Origin: Octopus vulgaris
Taxonomy: Eukaryota
NCBI GenBank assembly: GCA_951406725.2
Contig: OX597816.1
Span: forward strand, 111,414,001-111,478,000
Length of the DNA: 64,000 nt
Direction: 5' to 3'
Part shown: positions 3,011 through 63,005 of the stretch, in pieces
How the letters are laid out: the number at the start of each line of letters is the position of its first letter
How positions within the stretch are numbered: the stretch's first letter is position 1
Notes under the pieces: model-generated
Told to the model about the DNA's origin: nothing
Database searches by the model: none
What the model saw: only the letters and a program-made list of their open reading frames with translations
Translations under genes and position numbers: made by a program

Positions 3011-3186
3011 ATAACAAATATCATATTCGCATTTGCTATTACTGCCTTTGCTTTCATTGCAATTCTTCTGATCCAAGACAGCCCTGATAACAGAAATCAA
3101 ATGTAAAGATCATATTCACTGATTTCTGTATGAAATTTAGCCGAAATGATTTCAGCAGAGTGTTTTCTACAAAATGCATCAGAGAT

Positions 3187-3402
3187 AATATAGTTCTATA
3201 TTTAAGAGATGAGGAATTATGTACATTATTTACATTATTCACAATTGACGGATATTTGTCCTATCTTGTTTGCTGTTAACACAACGTTTCAGCTGATATA
3301 CCCTCCAGCCTTCATCAGATGAAGGCTGGAGGGTATATCAGCCGAAACGTTGTGTTGACAACAAACAAGATGAGGACAAATATCCGTCAATTGTAAATAA
3401 TG
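3187..3402. mobile_element. Fold-back insertion with minimal hammerhead motif (family H1); 12-bp TSD tgcatcagagat
   Basis: Near-perfect palindrome centred on 3317; TSD at 3175-3186 and 3403-3414; minus strand reads CTGATGA-aggctg..cagct-GAAACGTT-gtgtt. Confidence 0.85.
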
Positions 3403-3682
3403 TGCATCAGAGATGTAAAGGATGGTGTTGGACCAGGAGATCGATTTGTTTAAATACATAATAATGGGTACAGTTCCACTGATAAGATTTCCTGAAGTGC
3501 TTCGAACTTACAAAATTTAGGTCATAGTGAAGCTATTGTACAAGAGCTAGAGAGTCTGCATAGTGGGTAAAACCAGATAATCATGGAATTATGAAACGAA
3601 TTTCTTTAATACCAGATTAGCTAGGCAAATGACTCCTTGCTTATTTTCGAAGTGAGACAACTGACTTTATTACAATAAGTGC

Positions 3683-3738
<56 letters not shown>

Positions 3739-4067
3739 CTGTGTGTGCCCATGTATGCGTGTACGTCTGTGTTTCTCCCATTCGAAATTTTGAAAGGCAT
3801 CATTAGTTATATACAAGATAATTAAAATATTTCATTCCGTTTTGGCAAAGCCAACCATATTCTATAAGAATCTTATGTGGGTGACTCACACTGAGTAACA
3901 TATTGGCCATATTTCAATCAGTCGCTGGTGATTCGGGTACCTGGTAAAAGAATTCGTAAAATAAACCCGCTTGTTCTCAATTAAATGAAACTAGGATACA
4001 CACACACACAAGCACACCATTTGTGTCTGTGTGTGTGTATGTGTGTGCGTGTGTGTGTGTGTGTGAA

Positions 4068-4335
4068 GAGGTATGGCCTAGTGGTTAGGGTTCGATTCCC
4101 GAACTGGGGATGGGGGCGTTATGGTCTTGAGCAAAACACTTCATTTCATGTTGCTCGGCAACCATTTCGACATCTGGCGTGTCATACTCTTGTGCACGTG
4201 TACAGGAAATGTCGCTTTGACGGAGGGAGAGAGATAATGTACAGCACGTACATTTGATCATTATAAACAAATCACTTGAGAAGGGTGTTCAACAAAAACT
4301 GAACATCCATACATCGTCTTCGATGGGAGAAGCCA
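4068..4335 (+). mobile_element. SINE family C-like (tRNA head, CORE-like segment), degenerate
   Basis: tggcctagtggttagggttcgattccc head and tcttgagcaaaacacttcatttc, similar to the 48718 and 60240 copies. Confidence 0.6.
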
Positions 4336-4339
4336 CTTT

Positions 4340-4431
<92 letters not shown>

Positions 4432-4674
4432 ACACAATTATCTAAGCTTATACAATGGTATATCAAAGCACAAACTGAATCAACTTGATACAATGTGTCA
4501 AGTCTGGTTTACAGTCGTTTGATTTACAGAAGGTAATCCGGAGAGAAAGAAAGGCGAAGAAATGATCTTAGTCCTAGACTGATATTTTATTTATTGATCC
4601 CAAAAAGAGGTAAAACTAAAGCTAGCCTAACCTTGACAGTATTTGAACTGGGAGCAGAGACCCAGAACAAACAT

Positions 4675-4995
4675 ATATGTACGTACGTACGTACGTACGT
4701 ATGTATGTATGTATGTATGTATGTATGTATGTATGTATGTATGTATGTATGTATGTATGTATGTACGTATGTATGTACTTATGTATGTATGTATGTATGT
4801 ATGTATGTATGTATGTATGTATGTATGTATGTATGTATGCATGTATGTATGTATGCATGCATGTATGTATGCATGCATGTATGTATGTATGTATGTATGT
4901 ATGTATGTATGTGTATGCATGCACGTTTGAATACATGTATATATATATATATATTCATATATATATATATACACACACATACATATGTATATACA

Positions 4996-5035
<40 letters not shown>

Positions 5036-6664: not shown

Positions 6665-6720
6665 TATATATATATATATATACACATACATGTACATATA
6701 TATATACATATGTATAAATA

Positions 6721-7480: not shown

Positions 7481-7515
7481 ATGTATATCAAAATGTTTGT
7501 GCAGATACATATGTA

Positions 7516-7561
<46 letters not shown>

Positions 7562-7598: not shown

Positions 7599-7634
<36 letters not shown>

Positions 7635-9130: not shown

Positions 9131-9364
9131 GCTAACTGACAATGTTCAGGTTTTAGTTTAGTTTTTAGGACGCAATCCGTTGAACGCACGTTGAGATATC
9201 ATAATAGTACGAAACTATCATAACTGCATAAGCTGCCCTTAATATAATAAGACTGTAGTAAAGAATTAATAATAGTGGTACACCCTCCAACGTGACGAAT
9301 GAGATAACCTAGCCACTATAAGTAAAGAGAAGTACGTGAAGAACCAGAGTACGTAGTAGGTGGT

Positions 9365-10809
9365 GGAGGGGCAAGTCGATGCCCTCGAATGGCATCGTGG
9401 GATGCTGGACGGAGGACCCGGTTAAGCTGCTAGGGATCTGGTTTGGTCTAGATCTCCAGATAGAAAAGAATTGGTCTGAGGTGACGAGCAAGGTGGCTCA
9501 CGCGGTCAGGACTTGGTCCTGGCGGTGGCTATCCTTGAAAGGGAGGGCGGAAGTGGCCAATGTGTTTTTAGCATCGGTCATCACTTACCGCCTGACCGTC
9601 GTCCATTGTCCGGATTCGTGTTTAAGCAAGTTGGAGAGGCAGATCTTTCACTTTTTGTGGAAGGGAACCCCTCCTCTTGTAAGACGTTCTATTTGCTGTC
9701 AGAAGCCGTTAAAGGGTGGGTTAGGGATGCCTTGGCTGTTGATGCGCAGACATGCGCTGAGGTTAAGGCATCTTTGGCTCTACCTGGATGGTGAAAGGGT
9801 GTGGTCCCCGCTGGCGAGGCAGATGTTCCCCAGCTTTGCCAGTTTTGGTGGCAGAGAAACCTGATATCGTCGCAGACTTAGGACGAAGATGTGGTATTCG
9901 GAGTGCCATAAGGCACTCTGCCACTTCCGCAAGTCGGGCAATGCCGGCGGCTTTGGTACCACCGCAGCTTTTTATAGCAGGTTGGTAGAGGCCGGAAATG
10001 ACGATGCCTTAGGAAGGACTTTGGGCCTCGATAGGAATCAGTTAGACAGCCTGTTCCAAAGGACATTCAGGCCAAAGACGCTGGATAACTTTCAGAAGAG
10101 CTTTACTCGTTCGGGATAAACTCACAAGGCATGGTTACGGTGGACCATCGAACTGTCCAAGATGCGAGCGGGACGTGGAAACAGTCTCGCACGCTATTGC
10201 TCAGTGTCCGGAAATTTCGGACGTGTGGGTATATGCAGAACACCTGTTGTCAGACCGAAGAAGAGTACAGCTAACGGCTGAGACAATTCTAAAAATTGAC
10301 TCGCCTAGCTTTTTGACAAGTGAAGGTAAGCATTGCTTCCTCATTATAGTAGCAGTAGCGAAAGAGTGTATATGGAAGACTAGAACGAAAGGTATAAAGA
10401 CAGGCACCATGATCTCTGGCTCCGCCTTGGTGAACTTTTTTAAGTTCCACCTAAAAACAAAGGTGGAGCTAGAGAAAAGGTGTCTGTCAGTACGTGAGTT
10501 CGAAAAAAGATTGAAGCGTGTCGCACGACTGCTGCAAGTGAAAGTGGCCACATGAGCACGCTATGAGTTAGCTGCCGAGTTTCAGTGGGGAAAACAGGGC
10601 TCGTGGGGTCGGCAATCCTGGTGTTCCCACTTCATGTGTCATTTTATGTTGTATTGTAAAATTGTATATCATCCGATTTTTTTCGATTTTTTCGATTTTG
10701 TGTAAATTTTTAAAGATCATTTTTATGTAATCTCCATTCGTTTCTCATGACCCCAAATCATGATGTATTGTCCAACTCTATGTTAGCCCCTTGTGGGCAA
10801 TAAATAAAT
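9365..10809 (+). mobile_element. 5'-truncated Tx1-type (L1 group) LINE, ORF2 C-terminal part and 3' UTR
   Basis: ORFs 9379..9864 (VKLLGIWFG, WLSLKGRA, KGGLGMP) and 10175..10555 (ETVSHAIAQC, CIWKTR); A-rich tail; 17-bp TSD agtacgtagtaggtggt at 9348-9364 and 10810-10826. Confidence 0.9.
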
Positions 10810-11759: not shown

Positions 11760-11829
11760 TTACAACAATAAATAATATTACAGCAACAAATGCTGCAATT
11801 ACTGCAGTCGTCAAGTAAGTCAGAAAAAG

Positions 11830-13450
11830 TGTTCATGCCAGACTATGTCGCGAACTCTGTAACAGAATTCAAAAACGAACCTGACGAAGGAGCTATTTTC
11901 GAAGCATACTACAGAAGATATGAGCAAATCTTCGAGAAAAATGTAAAGATAAGGACGATGAGATGAAAACGTGCTTAATCTTGAGAAAACTTACGGTAAC
12001 AGAACATGAACGATACAGTAATTATGTATGTTACACATTCATATCTGTGTGTATATGTTGGCACACTTGTATAGAATACATCCCCACTTTTGGCACTATT
12101 TTGTTAGTGAACAATACAAACTGTGTGTAAAGTATATAATGTATTACTACGCTGAATGTCGAGTCCGTGTAACATGAATAGTAAATAAACACGTAAACAA
12201 TAACAATGGCTTTCATTTGGTTGTCTATCCCATTAGAACCCAAACTACACATAACAATGTACTCCCAAGAAAACCTTCGGACATAAACTTTAATGACAAT
12301 AGATATATTGCGTAAATTTTTCAGTGAAAAAAGCTCATTGTTCAACACCCGTTGGAAGTGTCTGAACAGAAAGAAAAAACAACGACGCGGACTACATCAC
12401 ATATGCCGGTAGATGAAACACAGAATGCGAGAAGTTTAAGCTGGACGAATTAACGCCAGATATGGTCAAATGCCTGATTTTTACACAGGGACTTACTGCT
12501 GAAAAGAAGTTAGAACTAGAATTCTCAAAAAGCGGGAACAAAACCAGGATGTAACCCTACAGTAAGTGTCTGAAGAATGTTTCAGGATAGTCAAATTAAG
12601 ACGCGACACAGAAGAAATTGAATGTAAAGATTGTTTCCAAGTAAAGCAAGTACGAAATAGTCAGAATAGAGATAAAATGTTTCCTAAAGAAAAACAGGAC
12701 AAAAATCAGGAAATAAACTCATGTTTTGCGTGTGGAGGTATACACCTGAGGAAAAATTGTCCATTTAAAAAGCGGAGAGCTTTCGTTGCGGTGATATCGG
12801 ACATTTAAAGACGCACTGTAGAACGAAGATAATAAAGCATCAGAACAAAGGAAAGCGAATAAATAGTATGTCATCGGAAAAAATTGCTAATATAACGATG
12901 AGGAAATTCGTAAAGGTGAAAATCAGAAATATAAGAGATAGAATGCAATTGAACACTGGTAGTGACATCACCATTATAAACAAAAAAAACGTTTATGTCG
13001 GTAAGCCGAAATTGATTAAATCGTAAAAGGTTGCACATGGTGTTACGGGAAAAAAGATTTTATTTTTTCGATTAATTCATATGTAATGTAACATTTCGAG
13101 GTCAAACGAAAAAGGTAAAGATATATGTATTAAATGATTCACTTAATCTATTTGGCACAGAGTGGATGGAACTATTCAAATTGTGGGATACGCCCACAAG
13201 TGTTCTGTGTGGAAATATAGTTGGGTCAGTCAAAAGTTCAAATGGATCCGAAGGATTGAAATAAATTTTTTTTTTTAAATATATTCCAAGATATTTTTTT
13301 GAAGAACTGGGTTGTAAAAAACAAAAGCTAAGATCACTGTAAAACAAAGTGCAACACTGGTCTTTAGGCCCAAACAGAATGTACCATTTGCAGCAACAGA
13401 CCAGGTTAACAAAGAACTGGAAGAAGAGGAGAAGCAGGAAAAGGTAATGG
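11830..13450 (+). pseudogene. Gypsy gag-protease-start of pol, frameshifted
   Basis: FEAYYRRYEQIF, NYVLPRKP, SLFNTRWKCLN, two zinc knuckles (CFACGGIHLRKNC, CGDIGHLKTHC), protease-like LNTGSDITII, RPKQNVPFA. Confidence 0.85.
12029..12256. mobile_element. Solo LTR (228 bp) of an unrelated LTR family
   Basis: TGTTA...TAACA termini; 5-bp TSD atgta (12024-12028, 12257-12261); removing it restores gag EHERYSNYVLPRKPSD. Confidence 0.88.
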
Positions 13451-13910
13451 TGAAGACAGAGAACGACACACCATCTACTTCAACGACTACGAAGCACTAT
13501 CCTATTAAATTACGACTACAAAATGGAGTATTTTCCGTCAAAAAAAAAAAAAACTAGGGCATGCGGATTGTTTGTCCAGACAGATACCAAAACACGGTGA
13601 GCCATTCGAAGAGACGCTAATTGCAGCTCTAAAAGCTGAAGAAGAAATTTTTTTTTAATGTGGTATGTGAGCTGCGGAAGGAGACGATGAAAGGGGAGAC
13701 AGTCACGACGGAAAAAGTAGCACCGTTGACAACTTCTGCAAAGGTAATTGACGGTGAATGACAAGCGGCTGGGAGGAAGAGAAAAAAGAAAATTACTCGT
13801 TTCCCACCCCACCCCTGCCTCCCACAAACCTAAAAAGCCAATAGTTACAAGACTTCATAAAAACAAGAACACACATAAATATTTAACAGAAACAAACGAA
13901 ATAAAGTAAA
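13450..13910 (+). pseudogene. Possible LINE ORF1 C-terminal fragment replacing Gypsy pol
   Basis: Remnants GH-RIVCP (knuckle end) and GE*QAAGRKRKKK, followed by an A-rich stretch; recognition only. Confidence 0.35.
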
Positions 13911-14118
13911 TAGTACGTAGTAGGCGGTCAGAGATAGTCGTGTCTTTATTGGTTTCACTAAGTATACTGTATACCGAAGTGGGCGTTATAACAATCCAAC
14001 ATTTTAGGGATATGACAAAAACTTAATTTCTAGGCTTTTAAAATGCACAAACCGATGAACATTCTTGTTTCAGCAAGGTTTCTGTCCCATAGCGAAATGT
14101 TCAGAATAGTGATTTTTA

Positions 14119-14470
14119 TATTATTTACATTTGACGGATATTTGTCTTCATTTTGTTTGTTGTTAACACAACGTTTCGGCTGATATACCCTGCAGTCTTC
14201 ATCAGGTGTCTTGGAGAAATTTTGAACCTGGGTTCTCATTCCTAAGGTATTTTTCGATGTTATTATTATTATTATTATTCAGGTCACTGCCTGGAACCGA
14301 ACTCAGAATCTTGGAAAAATGCCTTAGGAATGAGAATCCATGTTTAAAATTTCCTCAAGACACCTTATGAAGGCTGGAGGGTATATCCGCCGAAATGCTA
14401 TGTTAATAACAAACAAGATGAGGAGAAATATCCGTCAAATGTAAATAATGTACATAATTCCTCACCACTG
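14119..14470. mobile_element. Fold-back insertion, family H1; 12-bp TSD tagtgattttta
   Basis: Inverted arms ~14120-14255 and ~14314-14450; TSD at 14107-14118 and 14471-14482. Confidence 0.85.
14165..14210 (-). ncRNA. Minimal type I hammerhead ribozyme motif
   Basis: gacac-CUGAUGA-a-gacug(cagggUAUAU)cagcc-GAAA-cg-UU-guguu: stem I gacac/guguu, stem II with one mismatch, palindromic AACGUU stem III. Activity untested. Confidence 0.7.
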
Positions 14471-16907
14471 TAGTGATTTTTACTGTTGTAAGAAGATACT
14501 TTCGAGACAATAGTATAAATTGTGTGTTGAATTGTTTTTTAGGTTGTAGTATTGTTTCAAGGGGTGATGAGTGAAATAGAATTAGCGCATTTGATAGCAT
14601 CTTTAAGAAATTAGTTATAGAAAAATAATATTCACAAATATCAGTCTGGGAAAGTGAAACGTTTTCTTAAGTGGATGTCGTGAAAATAGTTTATTACAAC
14701 GCTGAAATAGGTACAAAAATGGTAGGATAAAATTAATGTTCATTTGTTAACTACACATAGACCTCTTTGTAAATATTTATATGTTGGATAGCTGGATGTT
14801 GAGGGAAGGTAATTTTATAGACCTTTATAAAATAATATATCTGTTGGTATTTAGATTATTTTTTGTCATTAATTTTTAACTTAGTTTTTTATACTCTAAG
14901 CTGAAGAGTTTATATCGTAAGTGCAGCGAAGTTGGTTTTATTTTTGTTTACATATATATATATATATATACATACATAAACTTGAAAGAGAGTTCAAGAG
15001 AAGTGGCGGTAATTTTTTATCTATTTCGTAAAAATTTTTCATTTTATCAGAGTTCACGAAAATTTTATCACTTTCCTTGATATAAAATTTGTTTCAGAGT
15101 TATTTTGGGAAGTAGCTAGTTTTATTTTTGAATTAAAATTTTGTATTAGACAGAACAAATCATCTTCTAGCGATTAGGTTGTAGGAAGATGTTTAGTAGA
15201 GGGCAATTAACTGTTTTTAAACCGTATTTATTTCCGGTGATATTGTCGGGTGAACTGTTTTCAAAAAAATTTTTTCCACTTGAGTTTCTTGATTAGACAC
15301 TCACTCTTTCGGAAGAAGTTTCACAGACAGTTTCTTTGAATGCATACGGATATTTTTTCCTCTAGAAAAGGAAGTATGTAGAGATTGCATCTCTAAAATT
15401 ATAGCTTATGTTGTGGAAAGTGAATAATTTGTGGAGAGCTGTTGATTAATTGATATGAGTTCTTAAAAATGTAAGCATCAGAACACTAATTGACAAAATG
15501 ACTCAATACTAAAAGACGTCTTAATATTTCTTAAAGCGAAAGAATGACTGCGGCATTGAAATTTCGTCAAGAATGACTTGTCAAATAGCGATTAGAACTA
15601 TTAGAGTAGAAATGGGGACTTTATAGTTGGGTGGAAGAATTAAGAGAAATATTGTAATTTATAGATACAAATTTGAATAGCCATTACATCATTAGGAGAT
15701 ATAATTTTATTTAAAAGCTGATTCAGTTCATTCTCGCATTAGAGTTGCTGTCAAAAAGAAAGTGAACTAACATTAATATTCATTATTGAAGATAAGTAGT
15801 TATAAAGCACTAAAGCTAAGTATTAACCTGAGTGAACGACTTGAACATAGATGGAAGGTTCTGAAATAACATAAAATAAAATAGCATAAAATAAAGTGCG
15901 GCCATTAAATAAGAGTGGTTGATACCATTATTTACAGGGATAAGGATGAATTATATAAAAACTATAGAATTATACCTTAAGACAAATTATCAATTATATT
16001 AGTAAAAACACGAAAACCCAATATACTTAAGCTACTCAAAATGTTATAGAACGGCGATGGGTGATATAGACGAGATAAGTCACGTCTGATTCGAACAATT
16101 TGGCGAGGAAAGGTGATAATATAAGAGAATAAGAAGTTAAGCTAATAACTATGAGAGATAATAGAGGGTTGTACGTATGGCAACAATTAGCAAATAGGTA
16201 ATATTGTATGAGTAAGTTAATTTAATATGTAGATAGACAAAAATATACACAAAAACACAATTTCATATAAACAAATACACACACACATACATACATATAT
16301 ATTTACATAACCAAACATAAGTAGACACTTGAGACATTCTTGCAGTGTATAGCATATCTAATAGTCATGTATGTATGCATGTGAATATATATGTGTATGT
16401 ATGTGTGTGTGTGTATAGAGTGTACTTGGCATTTGTTACCTTGTTACAATAGGGCCAGATGTTACATCTCTCGTCTCTTCAGAGAAGGCTAGTAAATTTG
16501 TGGTCTAATTATGCTGTAAACGCAGGAGTTATGTGAAAGTAGGAACAGTATAGAGAAGATTGTGATATTGAGACTAGTAATTTTGACACAAGTGAAAATG
16601 TAAAATTTAAAATACTAATAAAAATAGTGAACGTGAGAATATTGAAAACGATAAAAACAATAAAATGGAAATAATTTTTAAAAGGAAATAAAAAGTAGAC
16701 AAGTGAGATTGAAAATGTGAAAGTTGTATAAAAACGTAATAAGATTGAAAAAGAGCTAAAAGTAACTATAATTTCAAGGTGTAAGATAAAAGGGTGCTAA
16801 CGAGAAAATGGTAAAAATTGTAAGTTGAAACGAATTCAAATGTTAATGGGTTAAGGAACATTCTTGGTTTGACTAGATAGGATAGTCTAGGCCATGGAAT
16901 GTACTTG

Positions 16908-28585: not shown

Positions 28586-28820
28586 AGGTGGTGAGCTGGC
28601 AGAATTGTTAGCGTGCCGGGCGAAATGCTTAGCAGTATTTCATCTGCTGTTACGTTCTGAGTTCAAATTCCACCGAGGTCGACTTTACCTTTCATCATTT
28701 CGGGGCCAATAAATTAAGTACCAGTTATGCACTGGGATCGATGTAATCGACTTAAACCCTTTGTCTGTCCTTGTTTGTCCCCTCTATGTATAGCCCCTTA
28801 TGGGCAATAAAGAAATAAGA
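28586..28820 (+). mobile_element. SINE family A, full length, tail A
   Basis: Match to 1781-2010. Confidence 0.9.
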
Positions 28821-29334
28821 TCTGATAAAGAAGTGACTGCTCAGCTTGCTAGAAATTGCAATCAAGCCTACCTCAAATTACACCCTACCATCTCTAAAAA
28901 AGAAAACAGATCCATTGAATAATAATATAGTTAGTTATAAATGCACTATAAGAAGAAGAAAATACATCTTGGTACTCGTGACTGGAATATCTTTGATCAT
29001 AGGCTTTTTCTATCAAGCTTGACATGGAATTAACCTCGATTGAGCAAAGCTATGATGAAAGGCATTCCAACAGCTGTAATTAGCTCTTCTTTTATTCAGA
29101 CATAATGCATCCAGGATTGCCTTATCCAATATGTCATTCTCCTGGCTAATATGGTTTCTCCTGGTAATAATAATGATTTGTAACAGGAGCAAAAGATCAT
29201 ACTGAAATTTTATTTTGGGGTAAGGATTTTCAGTTGTTTAACCCACCTGCCTGAGACTGACTGAACTTATTATTTTAAACTTATCTAAATTAAAACCTTC
29301 TATCTATGTTTCAAACATTATTTTAACTAACCCC

Positions 29335-29535
29335 ACTTCCAAATTTTGGCACAAGGCCAGCAATTTTGGAAGTGGGGTTAGTTGATTACATCAACCCTAG
29401 TGCTCAACTGGTACTTGTTTTATCGAAAGGATCAATGGTAAAGTTAACCCAGATGGAATTTGAACTTGAAAATATAAAAATAGACAAAATGACACTAAGC
29501 ATTTTACCTAGGATTCTAGCAATTCTGCCAGCCCA
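29335..29535 (-). mobile_element. SINE family A, degenerate, tail C
   Basis: ggcacaaggccagcaatttt...catcaaccctagtgctcaactggtac, as at 16920-17000. Confidence 0.7.
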
Positions 29536-30429: not shown

Positions 30430-31030
30430 TCCAGTGATGGTTTGCATCTGTAGTCTTCAAATTAGCTTTCTCCTTTCTGGTTTTGAGAAGCCTAATTTCT
30501 CAAGATTGGTATTTATGCAATGTGCTACATATCTCAGAGCCACAATAATTAAAGGTATAAACTTGAATTTGTATTCTGGATAGAGTAACTGCAGATTTCT
30601 CAATAGTTCAGCATAGGTATTCTCTTTATCACTGATTTTCAGCTTTGTGTTAACATCTGCTGGGCAGCTAATTTCCACAGCTGTACACAGTTTCTCTTCT
30701 CTATCCCAAATCATATCAAGTCTGTTGTGCTTATATTTTATTGAGATCTTCACTGAGACATTCCACCAGTACTCCTTTTTACTATGAGTGGCTATGACTC
30801 CTACCATACTGTGGGTTCTTATTTCTTTCTCCTCAGGGTTATCATTCCAATGGATTTCATTATAGAGTGTCCTAGCTACAACATTATGTCTCATCAGTAG
30901 ATAATACCATGATGACAGTTTTGCACCACTGCTTAGGATGTGGGTGACATCTTCAGTGTTAACTCCACAAAACCTGAATCGGTTGTCATATTGTACTGCT
31001 TTTACTGCATCTCTATCCCTTTTGTGCATA
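30430..31030 (-). pseudogene. RLE-type (R2/NeSL/R4-group) non-LTR retrotransposon C-terminal fragment
   Basis: ORF 30457..31029: degenerate CCHC, RHN, HNRLD, VEISCP, KxxxY and PLIIVAL restriction-like endonuclease motifs. Confidence 0.8.
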
Positions 31031-31427
31031 TATATGTATTTTTGTGCATATATATGTATTTTTGTGCATATATATGTATGTATGTATGTTTATATGTATG
31101 TATGTATGCATGTATGCATGTATGTATGTATGTATGTATGTATGTATGTATGTATGTATGTATGTATGTATGTATGTATGAGTGTCTTTGAGGTTTGTCC
31201 TGCCATCCTGATCCCTGCCATTACTTAACAACCAGTGTTGGTTTGTTTGTATCCCCCAAAACTAAGTGGTTTGTGAACGAAACCAAAGGGATAAGACTCA
31301 GACATAAAATAAGCACTAGTGTCGATTTGTTTGACTATAACATTCAAGAGAGTGGTCCTAGCATGGCTGCAGCCAAATGATCAAATCAAGTAAAAGAAAA
31401 GCAAATAAGAGATATAAACAGAACCAT

Positions 31428-40619: not shown

Positions 40620-43600
40620 ACAGCATCCCACAACAATAAGGAGCTACTGTCCCAACATCCGCAATCATTTTTAGACCCAATATGCAAACACAGAGATACA
40701 AGATAGCACCAAAACTCAGGAGGAACCTAAAGTGATAAAAATTATTAATCTAACTCACAAAGAACTAACAGCAAACCAAATCAATATACTCTCCAAAAGA
40801 CTCAAATTTACACCCACCCCAAAATGTCCCAACTACAACGAAATGAAAGAAGACATCGTGGAATTCTGTAGAAAATTACAACTCACTGAGGAGTTATATG
40901 ACAAATACATTGAGGATGAATCATTGGTCTGAAATAGAAGTAACTACACCCTCTCGAAAGGTAAGAACAAAACCCTTGATCATTTCTGTGAACACATCTC
41001 AAATTACCCATTACAACATATGCACAAACAAAAACACAAACCAAACTTCAGCAAAAAAATTGTGCTGAGCTAAACAAATTAAAAATAACAAAATAATAAC
41101 AATCAAAGAGGCTGATAAAAGGAATGCAGTTGTCTTAATGGACATGGCATACTATATAACTCTAGTACTATCCATATTGGAAGACACAACATATTATGGA
41201 AAAGCCCAACACTACAGTCAGCAGAAAATAATGAGATACCTAAAATCCATATTAAACCTATACAGAGAAGGGCTCACAGACAAAGAATATGACTATATGA
41301 CCAATTTCAAAAGTAAAACCAGTCAATTATACGGTATTCCCAAGATACACAAAAGTGAAAAAATAAGTAAAGCATGCAGGATAGCCACAGACATAATAAT
41401 CAGGTCTCAGATTGAGACCTATAATAACAGGTCCCACATGCGAAACTCACTGCCTCAGTAACATTTTAGATACCCTCTTAAAACTATTCCTCAAGCATGT
41501 CAAAAGCTACATGAGGGACGACCTGGATATGTTCAATCCCCTTCCTGAAACAAGAAACAAAAACACCCTACTAGTATCAATCTCTATTCCAATATCTTTC
41601 ACAACCTAGGAATAGAGGCAATTCAATTCTGGCTAGAAACTTACACCGAGCTCACACATCACATCAAAAATGAATTTGTGATAGAAGGGCTAAAATTTAT
41701 CTTGGACAATAACTACTTCAAAGACAACTTCTGCGATGGTACAAGAATGGCCTCCTCCTTTGCTATCCTAGTCATGGGATATCTAGAACTTAGTCTTTAT
41801 TGTAAGGTTCTAGAAAAATACGGCAGCCCATTCTCCCTCCACATAGAAAATAACTGGAATAGATACCTGGATGACTGTTTCATTCTTTGGCAGGAAATTA
41901 TAGAGAGACTTAAAGAATTCCAAGTACTTATAAATGGACTTGACATAAACATTCAATTCATGATAGAATATAGCCATCAAAAACTTCCCTTCCTCAACAA
42001 CCTCATTAAGAAATCTAACAACATAATAGAAGCAGATATATACTATAAACCCACGAACTCCAAGCAATATCTACCATTCAACACATGCCAGCCCAGACAC
42101 ACCAGAATGAATATCCCCCTTCAACCTAGCAAAAAGGATATGTACTATAGTTTCTAATGCAATCACCAGGGACACACACAACTACATTAACTAAAGAATA
42201 CACTCATCACCAGGAACTACCCACCTTCACTAATTGACATATGCTTTCAACATGCCCTATTACTCAGCATCCACGAACTCAGACATCCCAAATTAAAGAA
42301 GGATTTACAATCAAAAGCCCTACCTTACATCTCCACACACAATGCTCTTAACAATGAAGCCTTCAAAACCATCCTTCAAAATATTTCCCTGCTAAAAAAG
42401 GACTACAGAATTAACTTAATCCTCCAAATACACACCATCATAAAAAGCAAGAGTCAGCCCAAATCTATGAAAAGTCTCCTAACACAAGCCCGAATACGCT
42501 CAACAACAACACTGAAGTCATCGGTAAATAAATGCGGAAGACCTAACTGTGGGACATGTGTCAATTTGATTGAGAGATCAGAGTTCTCCTTCAAACAGGG
42601 ACAACGTTTCACATTGAAAAGAAGCTTCAAATGTGCTTCGGAGAACCTGATATACGCACTAACCTGCTCTGGGTGACAAGAGCAATATATAGGCCAAACA
42701 AACACAGTCTACATCAAAGGATGGCTCGGCACAGATCCCAGATCAAAATTCCCCAAAACAGAAAAGAGCATTCAGCCAACACACTGACATTTGCGCCAAT
42801 AACAAAAATCCAAGCTTCAGAAATTTTCCCCTCTACCAATTCAGGAACGATACAACCTGCAGCCAACAAATTAATAAAGAGACTCTCTTTATTACAAAAT
42901 ACAAACCACTTTTGAACACATCTACGACAAACGACATATCCACCACGGCCTTAGAATAACACACACAAATATTAAAAATGATACATTAAAGAGACACCCA
43001 AGAATTCATTAAAAACAGTCCCAATCACTACTATAATCCACAACGAGTCACTTTTAAGTCACTTGACCAATTAACATCCTACTACTATCATAACATCCTG
43101 CATTCCCTTATTCTCTCTTCTGCATTCCCTTATTATTCTCTTTCTCTTTCTTCTTCTTCTCCAACACCTCCTTCCTTACTTTACTACAACTGCTATTTAG
43201 AATTACACCTATACAAATATTATAAACAATACATTCAAAAGAGATGTTTCAAGAATTCAATCACTACTACCATCCACAACAAGTCACTTTCAGAGAACTT
43301 GACTATTTAACATCCTGCTACGATCATAGCACTCCCGCATTATTCTTCTCCTTCTTCTTCTTCTTCATCTTCTCCTCTGCCAAGAATTCAGAATGACCTC
43401 GAACCCACAAGAGTAAACAAGAGAGACAGAGACACGCAGAATCAAGGAAAGTGCACTTTGTATTTGAATACTATGCAAATATTCTTTTAAAAAACTTTTC
43501 ATTTAATTTTTCCAAAATTTAATTGTTTTCCATGCTTACAGTTGAAGAAGTTTCACTGACTGAAATGTTTTTTATAAAATTATTTTAGCATTTTCTGCCT
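40620..43600 (+). mobile_element. Penelope-like element (Neptune-like), decayed RT + GIY-YIG endonuclease
   Basis: Fragmented ORFs 40732-42915: LSKRLKFTPTP, LYGIPKIHK, RPIITG, GTRMA, RYLDDCF, LPFL, YYKPT, CGRPNCGTC linker, LIYALTC..YIGQT..RMARH. Confidence 0.9.
42960..43385 (+). repeat. Tandem duplication (~240-bp period) downstream of the PLE ORF
   Basis: caatcactact..atccacaac.agtcacttt..acttgac.a.ttaacatcct.cta occurs at ~43022 and ~43258. Confidence 0.8.
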
Positions 43601-46001: not shown

Positions 46002-46175
46002 TATATATATATATATATATAAGCACAATTAAAGGTTACAAACCTCACTCAGGTATAGAAAATCCTATGAAAATACTGATTAATTACCTATACAAAAAAT
46101 ACTGAACATTATATTTAATACTTAACTGCAAGGTAACTATATAAACTGTGGTTTATATATATATTTATTTATTAT

Positions 46176-46544
46176 AATAATAAGATGAGAAAATAGAGAG
46201 GTAATTAATGAATTATCATCTATTAATTAAAAAATTGACAAATATCCCTTACAGCTATTTCAATTCAGACCCTCAGTAAAAGAATTAATCAAATTAAAAA
46301 TTATTTGAAAGTCGTGTCTCTTCAGAGGTAGATAAAGATATACAAAATAAACGTTCAATTTCCTCATGTTGAGTAAACAGCTGCAAACCATTAATCTTTG
46401 AAGAGATTCGACTTTCAAATAATTTTTAATTTAATTAATTTTCTGAGGGTCTGAATTGAAACAGCTGTAAGGGATGTTTGTCAATTTTTTTAATTAATAA
46501 ATAATAATTTATTAATTACCTCTCTATTTTCTCCTCTTATTATA
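46176..46544. mobile_element. Fold-back insertion with hammerhead-like motif (family H2)
   Basis: Inverted arms ~46176-46326 and ~46396-46544; CTGAAGA on minus (46325-46319); GAAACAGCTGTA on plus (46458-46469). Confidence 0.75.
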
Positions 46545-46594
46545 TATATATATATATATGTGTGTGTGTATGTGTGTTTGTATATATATATATA

Positions 46595-48717: not shown

Positions 48718-49050
48718 ACATGTAGCTTAGTGGTTAGGGTCTTTGGCTCATGGTCATAAGGTTGTGTGTTTGATTCCTGGCAGCACATTGCATCTTTCAG
48801 CAAGACACTTTATTTCAAAGACATTTTTTTTCAGATTTTACCAAGTCACTCAGCTGGCAAAGTTCTGTGTCACACTGAATCTCCCTGCAAACTATACTAA
48901 GAGTACACAAATCTGTAGAATGCTTAGCACGTTAATTTCAAAAGCAAGCTGTTATGTTGATCAATTCAAGTAGAACACTCTTTATCAAAACCAATGGATA
49001 ACCAAGCCACATTTGTGAGTAAAGATCTGAAAGATGCTCTTCAAGCCAAA
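48718..49050 (+). mobile_element. SINE family C-like, degenerate
   Basis: tagcttagtggttaggg..tttgattcc head and agcaagacactttatttc. Confidence 0.6.
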
Positions 49051-51026: not shown

Positions 51027-52304
51027 TCAGGTCGTCCCATAAGTTCTGTCCGATTTATTACCTCTTTTAAAATTGAATAAAATTTAATAGTATTTTAGAA
51101 TGTCTAATAGAATTTAAAATTATTTTTATGCATTTGTGTACATCTAAACTAATTAAATATTATTTTTACAGAATAATAGAATTAAAATTTCTTTGATTAA
51201 AACCTTTTCTAACATGGAAGTATCCAAAGAGCATTTGAGGCACATAATGCATTATGAATACAAAAAAGAAAACTCTGCAGCTGAAGCGACTCGAAACATA
51301 CACTCAGTTTATGGGAAAGAATGCTTGAATGAAAGAACTTGCATCAAAATTCAGAAGTGGAGATTTCAGCCTTGAAGATGAAGATCGAACAGGACATCCA
51401 CTTGAATTTGATGATAAGTTCCTTGAGACATTACTTGAAGAAAATCTTGCATTATCAGTTGAAGAATTGGCAATAAAGCTTAGTTCAAACCATACAAGTG
51501 TTCATTGTCATCTTCAACAACTAGGAAAGGCTCCTAAACTTAGAAAATGGGTGCCTTGCAAATTGTCTGAAACCAACCGCAAATCCCGAGTTGACCTCTG
51601 CTCTTCTCTCCGTTCTCGCGAACTCATTTCACCCTTTTTAGATAGACTTGTGACTGGTGACAAAAAATGGATCTTCTATCAAAATGTTAAATGTCATAAA
51701 CAGTGGCTTGGTAAAAGGGAGAAAGCTCAGCCACAACCAAGAAGGGAACTTCATGGGAAAAAGGTTCCTCTCTCTAACTGGTGGGATTGCAAAGGAGCAA
51801 TTCACTTTGAATTGTTACCACCTAATGCAACAATCAATGCTCAAGTCTACTGTCAGCAATTAGAGCATTTGAACCAAGTTTTGAAGAAAAAAGACCCAAT
51901 TTAGTGAATTGAAAAGGAGTGATGTTTTATCAGGACAATGCATGACCCCACACTGTATAGATCACATCACAGAAGATCGAAGAGCTTGGTTCGAAAAAAT
52001 TCCTCATCCACCTTATTCTTCCAACCTTGCTCCTTCAGACTACCGTTTGTTTCATAGTTTACAGAATTATTTGGGGAACATAACTTTCGCAAGCCATGAG
52101 GAGGTTGAAACTGACATTTCAGAGTTCTTCACTTTGAAACCAAAAGAGTTTTACATTGATGGGATTAAAAAGCTTGTAAATAGATGGAAGGAAGTCATGG
52201 ATAATCAGAAAAAGTACAATGATGATTAAATTTCAAATAAATATAACATTTGATCACTTGTTTTCTTTATTCAAAATTCGGACAGAATTGATGGGATGAC
52301 CTAA
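51027..52304 (+). mobile_element. Full-length mariner (DD34D type) transposon, inactive
   Basis: TIRs tcaggtcgtcccataagttctgtccga / tcggacagaattgatgggatgacctaa; TA on both flanks; ~1.28 kb. Confidence 0.95.
51214..52229 (+). pseudogene. Mariner transposase pseudogene
   Basis: Three ORF pieces with WVPCKL, LVTGDKKWI and HPPYSSNLAPSDY; frameshifts and stops. Confidence 0.92.
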
Positions 52305-56263: not shown

Positions 56264-56266
56264 TGT

Positions 56267-56675
56267 GTGTGTTGTGAATTTATGGAAAGAAATCCCATAA
56301 AACTCAACAATTTTGATAAAAATGGAGAAGAGATGTTAAAATATATAAGAGAATTTTAATCCATGCAGACGATCATTTCGTACAGAGATATAAAAATCAA
56401 GCAAATTCATGCTTTTTCCTTTACCAAGTCCTTTGAAAAAATTTTGTTTATGCTTCTTGCACTCAAGAGTACAGTGATTTATAATTAATTTAATTTCATC
56501 TAATCAATTTAATTAATTCTATTCAACCATGAATTTGCATGAAAATTATATCATTGTACAAAATGATCATTTGCATGAATTAAAATTCTCTTATATATTC
56601 TAACATCTTCTCTTCTCCATTTTTATCAAAATTGTTGAGTTTTATGGGATTTCTTTCCATAATTTCACAACACAC
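56267..56675. mobile_element. Fold-back insertion with hammerhead-like motif (family H3)
   Basis: Inverted arms 56267-56411 and 56528-56675; combined motif tgca-CT(c)AAGA-gtacagtgat..atcattgtac-GAAA-tgatcg-TC-tgca. Confidence 0.75.
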
Positions 56676-56834
56676 TATATACAAGTATTATTTTCATATT
56701 CACAATTTTACACCAGTAAGCCACCAGCAAAATATGAAGAATCTATATTAGAAATCTGTTTTGGAAACCTCCAAATTAGATGACGAATCCAATTCAACCT
56801 TTTTACACACACACACGCACACATATATATATTG

Positions 56835-57110: not shown

Positions 57111-59770
57111 ATCATCATCATCATCATCATTTAACGTCCGTTCTCCATGCTAGCATGGGTTGGACGGTTCGACCGGGGATCTGGGAAGCCAGAAGGCTGC
57201 ACCAGGCTCCAGTCTTATCTGGCAGTGTTTCTACAGCTGGATGCCCTTCCTAACGCCAACCACTCCGTGAGTGTAGTGGGTGCTTTTCACGTGCCACCTG
57301 CACAGGTGCTAGGCGAGGCTGGCAATGGCCACGGTCGGATTGGTGCATTTTACGTGCCACCGGCACAGAAGCCAGTCGAGGCGGCACTGGCATCGGCCAC
57401 GATTCGGATGGTGCTTTTTACGTGCCACCGGCACGGAAGCCAGTCGAGGCGGCGCTGGCATCGGCCATGATTCGGATAGTGCTTTTTACGTACCACCAGT
57501 CCAGGGGTCCTGGCATCTGCCGGGTGCCAGTCATAGGATTTGTTCAATTTCGATTCCGATTTCTATTTCACTTGCCCCAACAGGTCTTCGCAAGCAAAGG
57601 GGGGTTGGCATGGGTGCCTGTCGTCGGATGAGGTTCGATATCGATTTCGCTTGCCTCAACAGGTCTTTGTGTGTCCAAGGGAGGAAATGCATGCATACGT
57701 GGGCTGGACTCACTTGTCCTGCCTGGTCTTCTCACGCACAGCATATTTCCAAAGGACTTGGTCGCTGGTCATTTCCTCAGTGAGGCCTAAAGTTCGAAGG
57801 TCATGCTTCACCACCTCGTCCCAGGTTTTCCTGGGTCTACCTCTTCCACGGGTTCCCTCAACTGCTAGGGATTGGCACTTTTTCACACACCTATCTTCAT
57901 CCATTCTCGCCACATGACCATACCAGCGCAATCGTCTCTCTTGCACACCACAACTGATGCTTCTTAGGTCCAACATTTCTCACTGTTGAGTATACGCACT
58001 GACATTACACATCCATCGGAGCATACTGGCTTCATTCCTCATGAGCTTATGCATGTCCTCAGCAGTCACGGCCCATGTTTCACTGCCATGTAGCATGGCT
58101 GTTCGTACACATGCGTCATACAGTCTGCCTTTTACTCTGAGCGAGAGGCCTTTAGTCACCAGCAGAGGTAAGAGCTCCCTAAACTTTGCCCAGGCTATTC
58201 TTACTCTAGCAGTTACACTTTCAGCGCACCCACCCCCGCTACTGACTTGGTCACCTAGATAACGGAAGCTATCAACTACTTCTAGTTTTTCCCCCTGGAA
58301 AATGACGGAAGTTGTTTTCTGCAGATTTTCGGAGGTTAATGCTCCTGAGCATCTGCCACATACAAAAACTATCTTCCCAGTTAGCTGCACCTCTTATGTG
58401 TCCATAGCTTACACTGGGTACATCTTATAGAGTTTCTACCTACACCTTTTCTACAGATCAAGCAGGGCCATCTTCCTGAAGACATTTGTGGTTTGTCTAC
58501 CTTCCTACTTATAAGTACTTTGGTTTTAGCTAGGTTGACTCTAAGGCCCCTCGATTCTAATCCCTCCTTCCACACCTGGAACTTCTCCTCCAGTTCTGAT
58601 AGTGACTCAGCAATTAGAGCAAGGTCGTCAGCATAGAGGAGCCATCAGGGGCAACCTGTCTTGAATTCCTCTGTAATTGCCTGGAAGACTATGATAAATA
58701 GGAGGGGGCTGAGGACTGAACCCTGGTGGACTCCAACCTCTACCTTGAATTCTTCTGTGTACATGTTGCCAACCCTAACCTTACTTACGGCATCCCTGTA
58801 CATGGCTTGCACAGCTCTCACCAGCCATTCATCTATCCCTAGTTTCCTCATTGACCACCAGATAAGGGATCGGGAGACCCTGTCGAAAGCTTTCTCCATG
58901 TCAACGAAAGCCAGGTACAGGGGCTTATCTTTGGCTAGGTATTTCTCCTGCAGCTGTCTCACCAGAAATATGGCATCAGTGGTGCTTTTCCCTGGCATGA
59001 AACCAAACTGCATTTCATCCAACTTGACTCTCTCCCTAATCAGTTGGGCTATGACCCTCTCTGTAACCTTCATTACCTGATCCAACAGCTTGATACCTCT
59101 GTAATTGTTTGTATCTAGAGCGTCTCCTTTACCTTTGTAGCAGTTGACTATTATGCTGCTACACCAGTCATTGGGTATGACTCCTTCGTGTATCACCTGT
59201 TTAACTATACGGGTGACTAGGTTATAGCCGACACTGCCAGATATTTTGAGCATCTCTGCAGTAATTTCTGGTGGGCCTGGGGCTTTCCCTGTCTTCATGC
59301 TTCTAATTGCCTTAACTACCAAAGAATTGTCAACTCGGATGGCTGGTCCCTCTGTTGGGTTGACATTCAGCAGACTCTCTTTATCCCATTCATTTTCTTT
59401 ATTCAGCAACCTTTCATAGTGGCATCTCCAAACCTCTCTCTTTGCATCCTCATTTAGTGCAAGTGAACCATCATCCATGCGGACACATTTCTCTCCTACC
59501 ACATCACGATTCTCTCTCCCACACTGTCTTGCAACACGAAATACCTCAAGTCTTTCATCCTCACAGTGCAGAACATTGGCAAATTTTTTCTTATCTGCTT
59601 CCCCCCTGGCTAAATAAACCTGTCTCCTAGCTTCCCTTCTGGCTGTCTGATACAATTCCCTGCTACCACCGTTCTTCCAGTCCCTCCAAGCCTGTTCCTT
59701 TCGTCTAATAACCCTGTCAACCACATTGTTCCACCACCATGTTACTCTGGGTCGAGATGGGACTTTATAA
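57111..59770 (-). mobile_element. 5'-truncated RTE-clade LINE, relatively young
   Basis: RT ORF 58645..59820 (YKGKGD, NYRGIKLL, QFGF, FVDMEKAFD, GVHQGSVLSP); after an in-frame stop, LLYADD; Cys/His insert; RYLG; RGRGRPRKTW; (GAT)n tail. Confidence 0.95.
57710..59770 (-). pseudogene. RTE reverse transcriptase pseudogene
   Basis: Stop at 58645; frameshifts near 58381 and 57980. Confidence 0.92.
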
Positions 59771-59845
59771 GCAATATGTGAGAGAGTAATGGAAAGAATC
59801 TTAAATGGATGATAGACCAAATATATATATATATATATTCTACAT

Positions 59846-60221
59846 CAGGCATGTCAAACCAGAGTCTCTATGGGCCATATTGTTCATATGCATGTTACCA
59901 TGTGGGCTACATTCCTCATATGCATGTTGCCATGGGGACCACATTGCTGACATACATTTTGCCATGGGGACCGTATTTTTTTAGGCACATGTTTACAACA
60001 AAATTTTCCATCATATCAGTTCTTTATTATTAAGTAAAAATCATTTAAATCTTATTTGCTCATCAATAACCATATTTCTATTAATTAGATTATTAATTAT
60101 TTTCATTATTAAAAAGTTTTGGATTCCCCATTTTTAAACTTCTAGCTACAACACTTGCAGGCCACACTTGTGTTCAAAAGCGACCAAATGCAGCCCAAGG
60201 GCCACATGTTTTACATGTTTT
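59846..60221. mobile_element. hAT-like MITE (tentative)
   Basis: caggcatgtcaaac / gttttacatg termini; internal ~31-bp repeats catgttgccatggggacc; no clear 8-bp TSD. Confidence 0.45.
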
Positions 60222-60237
60222 AGGTTAGGGTAAAGAG

Positions 60238-60572
60238 TAGAGACCCCTTTCGGTCATAAATAATCAAGGGATTGCACCTAGAAACTTACCCTCAGAGGCA
60301 CAAGTCAAGGCAAGGTTGTTTATGGAAGACCAGCAATCACCCATGCATACCAGCCTCCCCTTTTCACACCACCGATGTTATCCAAGGGAAAGGCAAATGT
60401 TGATACAGCTTGGCAATAGTGACATCACAACTCATTTTTACAGCTGAGTGAACTGGAGCAATGTGAAATAAAGTGTCTTGCTCAAGAGCACAACACATAG
60501 CCCGGTCCGGGAATCAAACTCACTACCTCATGATTGTAAGCCCAACACTCTAACCACTGAGCCATGCGCCTC
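60238..60572 (-). mobile_element. SINE family C (tRNA head + CORE-like domain); degenerate relative at 62520-62732
   Basis: Minus strand ggcgcatggctcagtggttagagtg..tttgattcccgg..tcttgagcaagacacttta..cagctgtaaaaatg. Confidence 0.8.
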
Positions 60573-61810
60573 CATAAATATACATACACAACATATCACA
60601 CACAGATACACACACGCACACATATGTACATCACTCTTTTTTTGTGATAGTCTAATAGTTAAAACTCTTCTTCAACATCTCATAGGACTAAATTCACAAA
60701 CTTAATGTAGAAACTGAGACTATTTCTACTCATATTATTCATAACAAGACATCATATCTTTATTCATGAATACATAAGAATAGAATTTACCTAAAATAAT
60801 ATGAATAAATTATAAAGGGTTCAGATTGATTCAAAATATAAATGATACATTTGTAACCAATAATACATATATGTATATATTAGATTCTAAGAAATGTGAT
60901 AATTTATTGAACCATGATGCGTGTAAAGCAAACTAAATATTGGCATGATTTCAATTCAGCATATAGAGTGGTACAAGCAAATTGTATCTGAGCAAATAAA
61001 TGATAAGCTATGTGGTCAATCAACCTACTAGATATAGCAGCCAAATCTCCCTTAAATCACACCATAAATACTTTCACTGTTGTACAATTTTTGCCACTTC
61101 AGTAGTAGTAGTAGAAGTAGTAGCACCAGTCGTCAATGGTGGCAGTGATTGTAGCAGTGGAGGTAACAGTGGCACCATTATTGTTTATCCCTGGTCCATA
61201 ATTAACATTGGTCTGGTAGTGACCATCACAACATTTCATTCAAACAAAGGGTTTCTAGAACTGCATTATTTTATTTTGTTCCATCACAGATTTTAGTTCA
61301 CATTATATGTTAGTAATTAATTCTCTCTCGCTCTAATGGATATTTATCTTAACATATAATTTATCTTAACTGCCTACCAAAATAGAAAACACTCTATTAT
61401 AGAGAATAGAGCTCTTCGAGATTATAAAATGATAATTATGAGCTATGGATTGGCAAAATTCAGTCACCAATACACTTCACTTGTTAAGGTTTTCTCTACA
61501 GATATACTATAGAAATTATAGCCAGCATTGATTTTGTTATGATGTTTCACATCCAAGATGCCTGATATAAACAACAATAATGAGATCGACGATGAAAAAT
61601 GGGTAATGGTTGTATATGTCATATATCATGAGTTTTTGCTCCTTCTTCAACATTCATCCAACCCCTTTATCATCCACGAGGACATTGCTTAAATAACCAC
61701 TAAATATATCAGTCTAACATTATTGAATATACCAATTTTATATATTAAACACATTCCTGGAAGCTATAAACATAAAGATTAACGACTTGGAGGGATAAAG
61801 TATTTTATTT

Positions 61811-62125
61811 TATGGAGATGCACTTGCATAGCAAGTGACCTGATCTGAGATCGTGTGCTGGAACGAAAACAATTGCAGCGTGGAAGGTGTTTATAAGCCA
61901 TTTAAGAAACACTAAAAAACTGTTAGATTCACTTCAACATTTAAATTTAATTTATCAAAATATTTTCGTTGCTTTGAGACCACGACCTATGGAATTTTGT
62001 CAGTGAACAGGTAGCAATCTCAAAGCAACGAAAATATTTTGACAAATTAAATTTAAATGTTGAAGTGAATCTAACGGTTTTTGTGTATTTCTTAAATGGC
62101 TTATAAACACTTTCCATGCTGCAAT
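61811..62125. mobile_element. Fold-back insertion (family H4); 12-bp TSD agtattttattt
   Basis: Inverted arms 61872-61990 and ~62007-62125; TSD at 61799-61810 and 62126-62137. Confidence 0.85.
61996..62046 (+). ncRNA. Variant minimal type I hammerhead motif with G3-C8 core
   Basis: uuuguca-GUGAACA-gguagc(aaucucaaa)gcaac-GAAA-auau-UU-ugacaaa: perfect 7-bp stem I, palindromic stem III. Activity untested. Confidence 0.6.
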
Positions 62126-63005
62126 AGTATTTTATTTGACTTATAAAAACGTTTAATATACTTTATAGTACATTGTGGTTCCATAACGAAATACCACATC
62201 CCTACAAATCATTAATATCAACACACTTCAGCTTCTAGTCTACATATGCATAATAACCTTATTTTACTTATTCTAGGTCTGATTAAAAACTACTTGACTT
62301 GCACACACACACCCCACACCCCACTGCTACTTCAAAACTGTCTAGTTATGCACATATTTCACTAAAACCTACATAATACATCAGAATATATAAGTAATTA
62401 CTCTTTTCTTATCTTGTAAATTGTATATCAACACCATAATTCAATGCCCAGCACTAACCACTATACCATTCTTATCTTTACAGACCATTTGGTTAGTCCA
62501 CATTACTCTATAAGTAGCATAGGGCAGATTTCTCAGTTTCTCGGTAGATATATTCATGCCAGGATGGAATGCCAGTCTGCCACAGGATTACTCATTTTTA
62601 TCAGCTGAGTTTACTAGAAGAAAATGAAATGAAGTGTATCGCTCAAAAACACAATGCATTGCCCAGTCCAGGTATTGAAACTACAATCTTATTGTCATGA
62701 GTCCAACACCCTAACCATAAGCCATGCACCTCTACTTACAGATCATTATTCCCTGGGAGTTCTCATCCTGCCAACTTCTTAGTTGCAGCTACTGATTCAC
62801 AGATGTTTAAATTAACCACCAACATTATCACTCTCATCATTCTTGGAAAGCTTATAAAGTTATAGTCAGAGGATTTTTTCCTTTAAGTAAACCTGAACTA
62901 AAATTGGCTGCATGCTTAAGAATTTGACTTTGCAACTACTTAATTTCAAATTCAATTTACTGTACTATACCCTGGGCAGCTGTCATCTCAACCTGAGACT
63001 GATCA

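Follow-up and report, generated by a model that had tools for sequence, protein, structure and literature searches.

Penelope-like elements (PLEs) are known to insert as complex units with an inverted pseudo-long terminal repeat (pLTR), a 31-bp tail and a target-site duplication (TSD) of 8-10 bp, and the pLTR is sufficient in trans (Arkhipova 2013, PMC3846280). The inverted-copy layout has since been generalised, and nonautonomous PLEs noted (Craig 2021, PMC8557442). In vitro, a PLE protein cuts and extends both strands from two internal starts that bound the tail, and ribozyme cleavage is not needed (Frangieh 2024, PMC11167929). Opposite-strand hammerhead pairs 100-700 bp apart are described in Schistosoma mansoni (Cervera and de la Pena 2014, PMC4209133), and animal retrozymes are reported to derive from pLTRs (Li 2026, bioRxiv 10.64898/2026.07.22.740005). 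Here, five short fold-back insertions, E1-E5, are described in 64,000 nucleotides of the Octopus vulgaris genome (assembly GCA_951406725.2, contig OX597816.1, positions 111,414,001 to 111,478,000 of the forward strand; this whole stretch, numbered from its first letter, is the window). Their fit with published PLE anatomy indicates that they work like PLE terminal-repeat insertions, and it is moderately probable that the hairpins were inserted by PLE enzymes working in trans on RNAs that are short, bear hammerheads and are probably non-autonomous. An inverted copy with a tail and a TSD is already known for PLEs; what is fresh is a natural hammerhead with a G3-C8 core and a likely set of short interspersed nuclear elements (SINEs) mobilised by PLEs.

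The five fold-backs, first noticed by reading the sequence (the original prediction), were all recovered by self-comparison of the window, with arms that are 87-95% identical over aligned bases (Table 1). They were predicted to form four unrelated families, and this division (A-D) stands because a sequence match was found between E1 and E2 only. In each of the five, a second copy, inverted and 5'-truncated, lies at the 5' end, and the motif-strand 3' ends are directed outward, as had been proposed. The inversion junction, said to lie at or just upstream of the hammerhead core, does so in some elements, but its position varies: it falls within the core in E1 and in the short arm of E5, about at the core in E3 and 50 nt upstream of it in E2, whereas the short arm of E4 ends inside loop II, ~60 nt downstream of the core. 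The elements generally lack an open reading frame (ORF), the exception being family A, with an open frame of ~40-50 codons.

Exact 12-bp TSDs, first noted at the three elements outside TA runs, are present at E1, E2 and E5; a 12-bp flanking repeat accompanies 0.15% of 200,000 random segments of 200-420 nt. The RNA-sense 3' ends of both arms lie at the TSD, an arrangement that fits priming of complementary DNA (cDNA) from the two 3' ends left by a cut with a 12-nt stagger. Overlooked in the original prediction were one-sided tails, found in E1, E2 (at right, ~14 nt plus 6 extra bases) and E5, with none seen in E3 or E4. Two discrete 3' ends and an optional tail are evidenced for E1, E2 and E5 and, outside the window, for family D and a sister of family A termed A' (see below). 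In E1, positions 3220-3231 are a short tandem duplication exactly at the border of the short end and tail, possibly the result of re-priming at the internal start site.

Single insertions that became hairpins later, by break repair or replication fold-back, would provide another route to this layout. A variant is common to both E1 arms and absent from both E2 arms, and copying after insertion would give the same pattern. Such an origin is nevertheless very improbable, as exact TSDs bracket the entire two-armed unit in 3/3 non-TA cases, and copies share the site at which the arm without a tail stops.

Table 1. Coordinates of the fold-back elements, their parts and the decayed PLE, in window positions
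Feature	Position	Strand	Description
E1	3187-3402		family A; arms identical at 79/83 aligned bases
E1 TSDs	3175..3186 (left), 3403..3414 (right)		12 bp, exact
E1 one-sided tail, left	3187..3231	-	~45 nt = ~33-nt tail + 12-nt local duplication at short-end/tail border
E1 left arm	3232..3318	-	core CTGATGA 3318-3312, 6-bp stem II, AACGTT stem III, position 17 at 3283; 5' strand of native stem I missing
E1 right arm	3319..3402	+	begins within core, finishes at short end
E2	14119-14470		family A; arms identical at 119/137 aligned bases
E2 TSDs	14107..14118 (left), 14471..14482 (right)		12 bp, exact
E2 left arm, short end	14119..14313	-	complete minimal hammerhead 14210-14165 (stem I of 5 bp, one mismatch in stem II)
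E2 left arm, truncated 5' end	~14305-14294		(AAT)n and B-box-like motif
E2 right arm	14314..14470	+	begins 50 nt upstream of mutated core (14364); partial tail 14451-14464 and 6 extra bases
E3	~46171-46545		family B; arms identical at 139/151 aligned bases
E3 left arm	46171..46381	-	core CTGAAGA 46325-46319, damaged stem II, GUA site at 46250; inner boundary uncertain; within TA run
E3 right arm	46394..46545	+	mutated core TTGAAGA 46398; long stem II and ACAGCTGT stem III intact
E4	~56265-56677		family C; arms identical at 133/147 aligned bases
E4 left (short) arm	56265..56414	-	ends inside loop II; GAAA, stem III, GUC site kept; core absent
E4 right (long) arm	56415..56677	+	degenerate core CTCAAGA 56462-56468, 10-bp stem II 56469-56478/56550-56559, position 17 at 56571
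E5	61811-62125		family D; arms identical at 106/117 aligned bases
E5 TSDs	61799..61810 (left), 62126..62137 (right)		12 bp, exact
E5 one-sided tail, left	61811..61871	-	~56-61 nt; outer ends of other copies at 61810 or 61867/61872
E5 left arm	61872..61988	-	ends at core position 9
E5 right arm	61989..62125	+	7-bp stem I (61996-62002), G3-C8 core GTGAACA 62003-62009, 5-bp stem II, GAAA 62030, AATATT stem III, position 17 at 62039
Decayed near-full-length PLE ORF	40705..42920	+	reverse transcriptase (RT), Cys-rich linker, GIY-YIG; Neptune-type; frameshifted

In the proposed mechanism, a PLE endonuclease (EN) would cut AT-rich DNA with a 12-nt stagger, and both exposed 3' ends would prime reverse transcription of a presumably uncleaved RNA, starting at either of two internal sites so that the tail is included or left out. 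The cDNAs would end variably, at the RNA 5' end, close to the structured hammerhead or upstream of it, and the two would presumably be joined at their inner ends, with repair leaving the order TSD, tail, arm, inverted arm, TSD. For mobilisation by a PLE with priming on both target strands, a central claim of the original prediction, support comes from the geometry, from the tail with its two ends, from the in vitro work (PMC11167929) and from the remains of a Neptune-type PLE in the window.

Hammerhead motifs were sought with a strict minimal-hammerhead descriptor run over the window, using 40 shuffled windows as the null. Two matches with a C3-G8 core and one with a G3-C8 core were returned, all within E1, E2 and E5 and above the shuffled null (0.05 and 0.05 per window), whereas a single U3-A8 match elsewhere, at 48931, is at chance level (0.2 expected). 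No hammerhead was present among the best 150 of 220 matches of an Rfam scan, only microsatellite-driven microRNA matches being found among them. The palindromic stem III sequences are as first described; the accompanying CUGANGA motif is intact in 3/10 arms (E1 left, E2 left and E3 left), but degenerate in E4 (CTCAAGA...AAAA) and replaced in E5 by GTGAACA, with G3-C8. A complete hammerhead, with core, stems I and II and palindromic stem III, is found in the E2 left arm and the E5 right arm. In the case of E1 the core is intact but the native stem I is lost, and in E3 the core and stem II are never both intact in one arm; for E3 and E4, the full motif emerges only on combining the two arms. The stems of family A are almost invariant among its four arms in the window.

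The minimal type I hammerheads of PLEs (PMC4209133) share the palindromic stem III and, with families A and D, an extra base between positions 9 and 10.1 and a G10.1-C11.1 pair. Families B and C differ by longer stems II and III, and family D by its G3-C8 pair, U3-A8 being the only natural covariation in the sections of PMC4209133 and PMC3088659 available to us. The G3-C8 core indicates probable past selection on the ribozyme fold. This pair is known from engineered rescue mutants, and a natural version would escape standard CUGANGA searches. No report of a natural G3-C8 core was found in mainly open-access literature, although the supplements of Cervera 2014 and Perreault 2011, and Lunse 2017, may list it.

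The ribozyme-processed RNA of the original prediction was not supported. None of the ten arms begins at the cleavage site, all ten reaching 5' beyond it, and the hammerhead stems have a predicted probability of 0.0 in the whole fold-back for all five elements. The unit is therefore not defined by processing, and copies in hairpin form are likely dead-end products, the ribozyme being predicted to lie buried in the hairpin.

Family D was followed in four sequencing runs by aligning their contigs to 61450-62500 at 80% likeness; this covers the E5 region only, and the counts given are those among the contigs listed. Depth over E5 was 2.6e5-4.0e6, four to five orders higher than the 45.8 of the single-copy flank (run X4), and is not to be read as copy number. 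Other copies, some tailed and some not, end at two sites: outer ends with mixed flanks pile up at 61810 (75, 76, 47 and 54 contigs in the four runs) and at 61867/61872 (57, 17 and 40 contigs, with none listed for run X12). Short arms of varied length (61879, 61889, 61901, 61905 and 61912; 1-2 contigs each) meet the long arm at 61989/61991. The sequence GTTCACTGACAAAA is read by loose ends behind 61988 (45, 42, 22 and 33 contigs); it is stem I followed by G3-U-G-A-A-C8 in reverse complement, and the G3-C8 swap is thus the family D majority in the four runs. The A-A mismatch in stem II of E5 (62013, 62027) is C-G in 87-95% of family D depth, so that stem II is paired in the majority; DNA copies of the family are too few for counting stem covariation within it. 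The loose ends are alike up to ~25 letters and then diverge, and a 5' pile of 61 contigs (listed for X4 only) lies at 61991, which together suggest a preferred 5' start for family D ~14-20 nt upstream of stem I. No 5' pile was present at the cleavage site among the contigs listed. Family D has no tRNA-type boxes, and A>G counts in E5 contigs reflect DNA divergence.

Three further observations concern E5. Positions 61989-62000 and 62114-62125, the preferred 5' end and short 3' end of family D, are imperfectly complementary over ~12 nt, and the RNA may close on itself beside a priming site. A high-depth joint, 62051 to 61995 (3227 in X4) with three letters between, could reflect either an inversion or hammerheads in tandem. 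E5 is flanked by pieces of another repeat family (61477-61793 and 62136-62240), joined on opposite strands in copies of that family.

For family A, copies outside the window were reached through predicted proteins. A profile of the open frame in the family A arms matched 71 predicted proteins, comprising 25 of family A, 45 of sister family A' and one chance match (P0081, excluded from end counts); 70 of the 71 matches are under 190 amino acids (aa) long. A second search gave 162 longer A' readings, of which 120 are listed (173-371 aa), again gene-caller read-throughs. The A/A' matches are read-throughs of other repeat copies, and one family A read-through is a UniRef protein of Octopus bimaculoides (P0024); many public predicted proteins (P0024-P0228) are spurious in this way. 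The family A open frame was rejected as the start of a PLE ORF, since a word search found none, the profile found only short read-throughs, and 0/15 had a Pfam match, an intron or another frame being possible.

The last copies of A' end bimodally, ~ten codons apart (31 and 75 of 116), with the reference limiting the second group and mixed sequence beyond it. The 5' starts are variable, with 74 over 23 positions. Tandem A' copies are a minority: 15 tail-to-hammerhead junctions, all at one fixed point, occur in 12/71 proteins, and tandem copies in 8/120 of the longer set. An inverted copy lies upstream in 30 of the 68 proteins with room for one (one being the source of the probe itself), as counted by probing two of three antisense frames with probes that were both confirmed as reverse-strand readings. 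For instance, P0094 reads tail, then inverted arm, then tail-less arm, which is the layout of E1 and E5. Because A' occurs solo, in tandem and inverted, the fold-back is an outcome of integration and not, as originally proposed, the mark of a class; the layout is, moreover, already published for PLEs.

Upstream of A', a shared segment is read in one frame by 7 proteins and in another by 5. Within it, a B-box, GGTTCAATCC, is fixed by three pairs of overlapping frames (two frames), and a tetrapeptide compatible with an A-box occurs twice in 23,873 windows, both times 17 codons upstream of that B-box. In E2, the left arm is cut at a B-box-like motif. These readings, which are indirect, suggest that family A may well have an RNA polymerase III (Pol III), tRNA-like promoter head. 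A tRNA-derived SINE would need an end shared with its partner, and a PLE-type hammerhead and tail are present at the 3' end, with no partner found in the window. The non-autonomous nature of the RNAs, part of the original prediction, is likely for the E5 and E1/E2 families, and is made plausible by the fact that no arm enters a PLE protein, by the preferred 5' start of the E5 family, and by the tRNA-promoter-like boxes of A'.

The variety of A' copies also bears on MITEs (miniature inverted-repeat transposable elements) or fold-back DNA transposons moved by a cut-and-paste transposase. Inverted arms, high copy depth, TSDs and the complementarity between the family D ends all suit such elements, but asymmetric ends with an optional tail, a variable inner junction, solo and tandem forms, and hammerhead motifs in all four families make this explanation scarcely credible. 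Fixed, symmetric terminal inverted repeats are largely refuted for families A and D by the two alternative ends, asymmetric copies and variable junctions; families B and C are represented by one copy each.

The tandem A' copies, with their fixed junction and ~130-nt unit, would also be expected if the templates were non-LTR retrozymes, circular RNAs that a ribozyme processes from tandem copies, with the fold-backs as their insertions. A circular template would let copies run past the cleavage site, and the cores are conserved, as is the restored C-G pair in stem II of most family D depth. However, what precedes the hammerhead in E2 and in most A' copies is unique sequence rather than tail, and the tandem junction lies on a short shared stretch, fitting a template jump. 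Families A and D have the triplets GUU and UUU, which also count against circles; cleavage by PLE hammerheads is poor (PMC4209133), and the hammerheads are not required in vitro (PMC11167929). A circular template is therefore improbable. The animal non-LTR retrozymes (PMC7229834; 10.64898/2026.07.22.740005) resemble the octopus elements in being short, non-coding, proposed non-autonomous PLE derivatives with a type I hammerhead and dispersed monomers. As described in those sources they are tandem direct repeats with circular RNAs, whereas the octopus elements are inverted pairs with tail and TSD, known from DNA alone; tandem direct repeats each with a hammerhead number 0/5 in the window.

Two other systems offer partial parallels to PLE mobilisation of short RNAs. 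The SM-alpha SINE-like repeats of Schistosoma (PMC6765202) likewise have a Pol III promoter followed by a hammerhead, but are described as tandem and self-cleaving, whereas the octopus elements have a PLE-type tail, inverted copies and a minimal hammerhead. Non-autonomous Chlamys PLEs, such as MRC1 (PMC8557442), are similarly non-coding, form pLTRs and use PLE enzymes; unlike the octopus elements, they are algal and head-to-tail, and canonical hammerheads are reported as mostly absent. No report of octopus PLE hammerheads or PLE-mobilised tRNA SINEs was found in mainly open-access literature, repeat databases being outside the scope of the search.

PLE machinery existed in the host genome, as shown by the decayed PLE ORF (Table 1). 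Over a central block it is 34-43% identical to proteins with RT and GIY-YIG domains, including 43% to P0001, with RVT_1 and GIY-YIG, and it has the Cys-rich linker that defines Neptune-type PLEs (PMC3846280); its separate frames gave no Pfam match. Partial direct repeats downstream of it, at 42960-43450, are possibly a worn pLTR, with no hammerhead detected. The remnant was rejected as the parent of the arms, as it has no homology to any arm and no hammerhead in its flanks. Nor is an ORF with RT and GIY-YIG linked to a terminal repeat in any of the five elements or through protein searches. Exact-pattern scans of viral contigs, metagenome contigs and prokaryote genomes gave no match, and related-locus searches with the PLE proteins P0001 and P0010 confirmed no locus.

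Closest to the favoured reading is the explanation that the arms are plain truncated ends (pLTR and tail) of autonomous PLEs, in which short copies with a preferred 5' end would arise because priming takes place internally, in the 5'-most pLTR, and synthesis runs off at the start of the transcript, with no separate non-autonomous family. The anatomy equals published PLE units minus the ORF (PMC3846280), and most minimal hammerheads are described as dispersed, single or in opposite-strand pairs, 'probably related to truncated PLEs' (PMC4209133). The variable 5' starts of A' agree with this, and it may well apply to E3 and E4. For the A/A' families, however, the readings join no PLE ORF in protein searches, so that the suggestion that the arms might be termini of autonomous PLEs found no support there. 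No continuation into a PLE ORF was found among the 71 proteins and 120 listed of 162, bar one RT fragment (P0157, 1/120), which starts mid-domain after the A' tail and was set aside as a nested insertion. The segment upstream of A' has tRNA-promoter-like boxes rather than EN coding sequence. On balance, plain PLE ends are rather unlikely to account for the whole set.

Several points nevertheless weigh against trans-mobilised, non-autonomous RNAs. No autonomous partner is tied to any of the four families, the PLE in the window being unrelated to the arms, and an autonomous PLE transcript would likewise yield a preferred 5' start through run-off at its 5' end. The gene-caller read-throughs are a biased sample, and reference length limits the tail-end counts. 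The tRNA head rests on 12 peptide readings of A', with only a B-box-like motif with 2 mismatches in the window, and the A-B spacing is ~53 nt, compared with N30-35 (PMC8969392). No empty site for E5 was present among the joints listed from the four sequencing runs. E3 (with only a TA-type 12-mer) and E4 (with no TSD in the window sequence) lack a tail or a clear TSD, and each is known from its window copy only. Relative to canonical EN-positive (EN+) PLE complex insertions, the 12-bp TSD is longer than the published 8-10 bp and the 56-61-nt tail of E5 longer than the published 30-40 nt, and the octopus elements have no ORF between the repeats. They share with those insertions the inverted 5'-truncated copy, optional one-sided tail, TSD, terminal-repeat hammerhead, AT-rich or microsatellite targets, and tandem and inverted forms in one family.

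A wider proposal, held tentatively and at somewhat less than even likelihood, is that octopus has very abundant SINE-like families that use Penelope rather than LINE (long interspersed nuclear element) enzymes. These would comprise A/A', with a tRNA-promoter head and a PLE hammerhead and tail, and family D, a ~200-nt family with G3-C8; priming on two strands would make a large share of copies hairpins, and so a genome-wide source of long double-stranded RNA. If so, PLE integration would supply long double-stranded RNA substrates in the group of animals that is most noted for RNA editing. Should family A prove to be a SINE with a tRNA head that is moved by PLE enzymes, the large octopus SINE complement (~40% of transposable elements, PMC8967140) would partly depend on a driver other than the one assumed. 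The compact copies record late steps of PLE integration, namely the stagger, the choice of start site on each strand, and cDNA joining, and are numerous enough for tests of models. Such copies can also be misnamed MITEs and yield spurious predicted proteins.

The remainder of the window contains other repeats. Open frames to the left of E2 were rejected as a host gene, as they resemble, by inspection, a decayed LTR element. Decayed elements lie at 57980-59844 (-), 51329-52229 (+), 9340-10555 (+), 11772-13850 (+) and 30457-31089 (-), and include an RVT_1 LINE and a mariner-type transposase, with LINE-like and LTR-like fragments by inspection. A nested double fold-back at 63001-63684 has four related arms of ~300/150 bp, 73-81% alike, with a 7-bp direct repeat, GATCATT, at its edges; it has no hammerhead by descriptor, and could be a DNA fold-back element. 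Weaker local inverted pairs at 1844-2248, 28592-29535 and 29325-29383 are probably adjacent copies of a common ~230-bp interspersed repeat.

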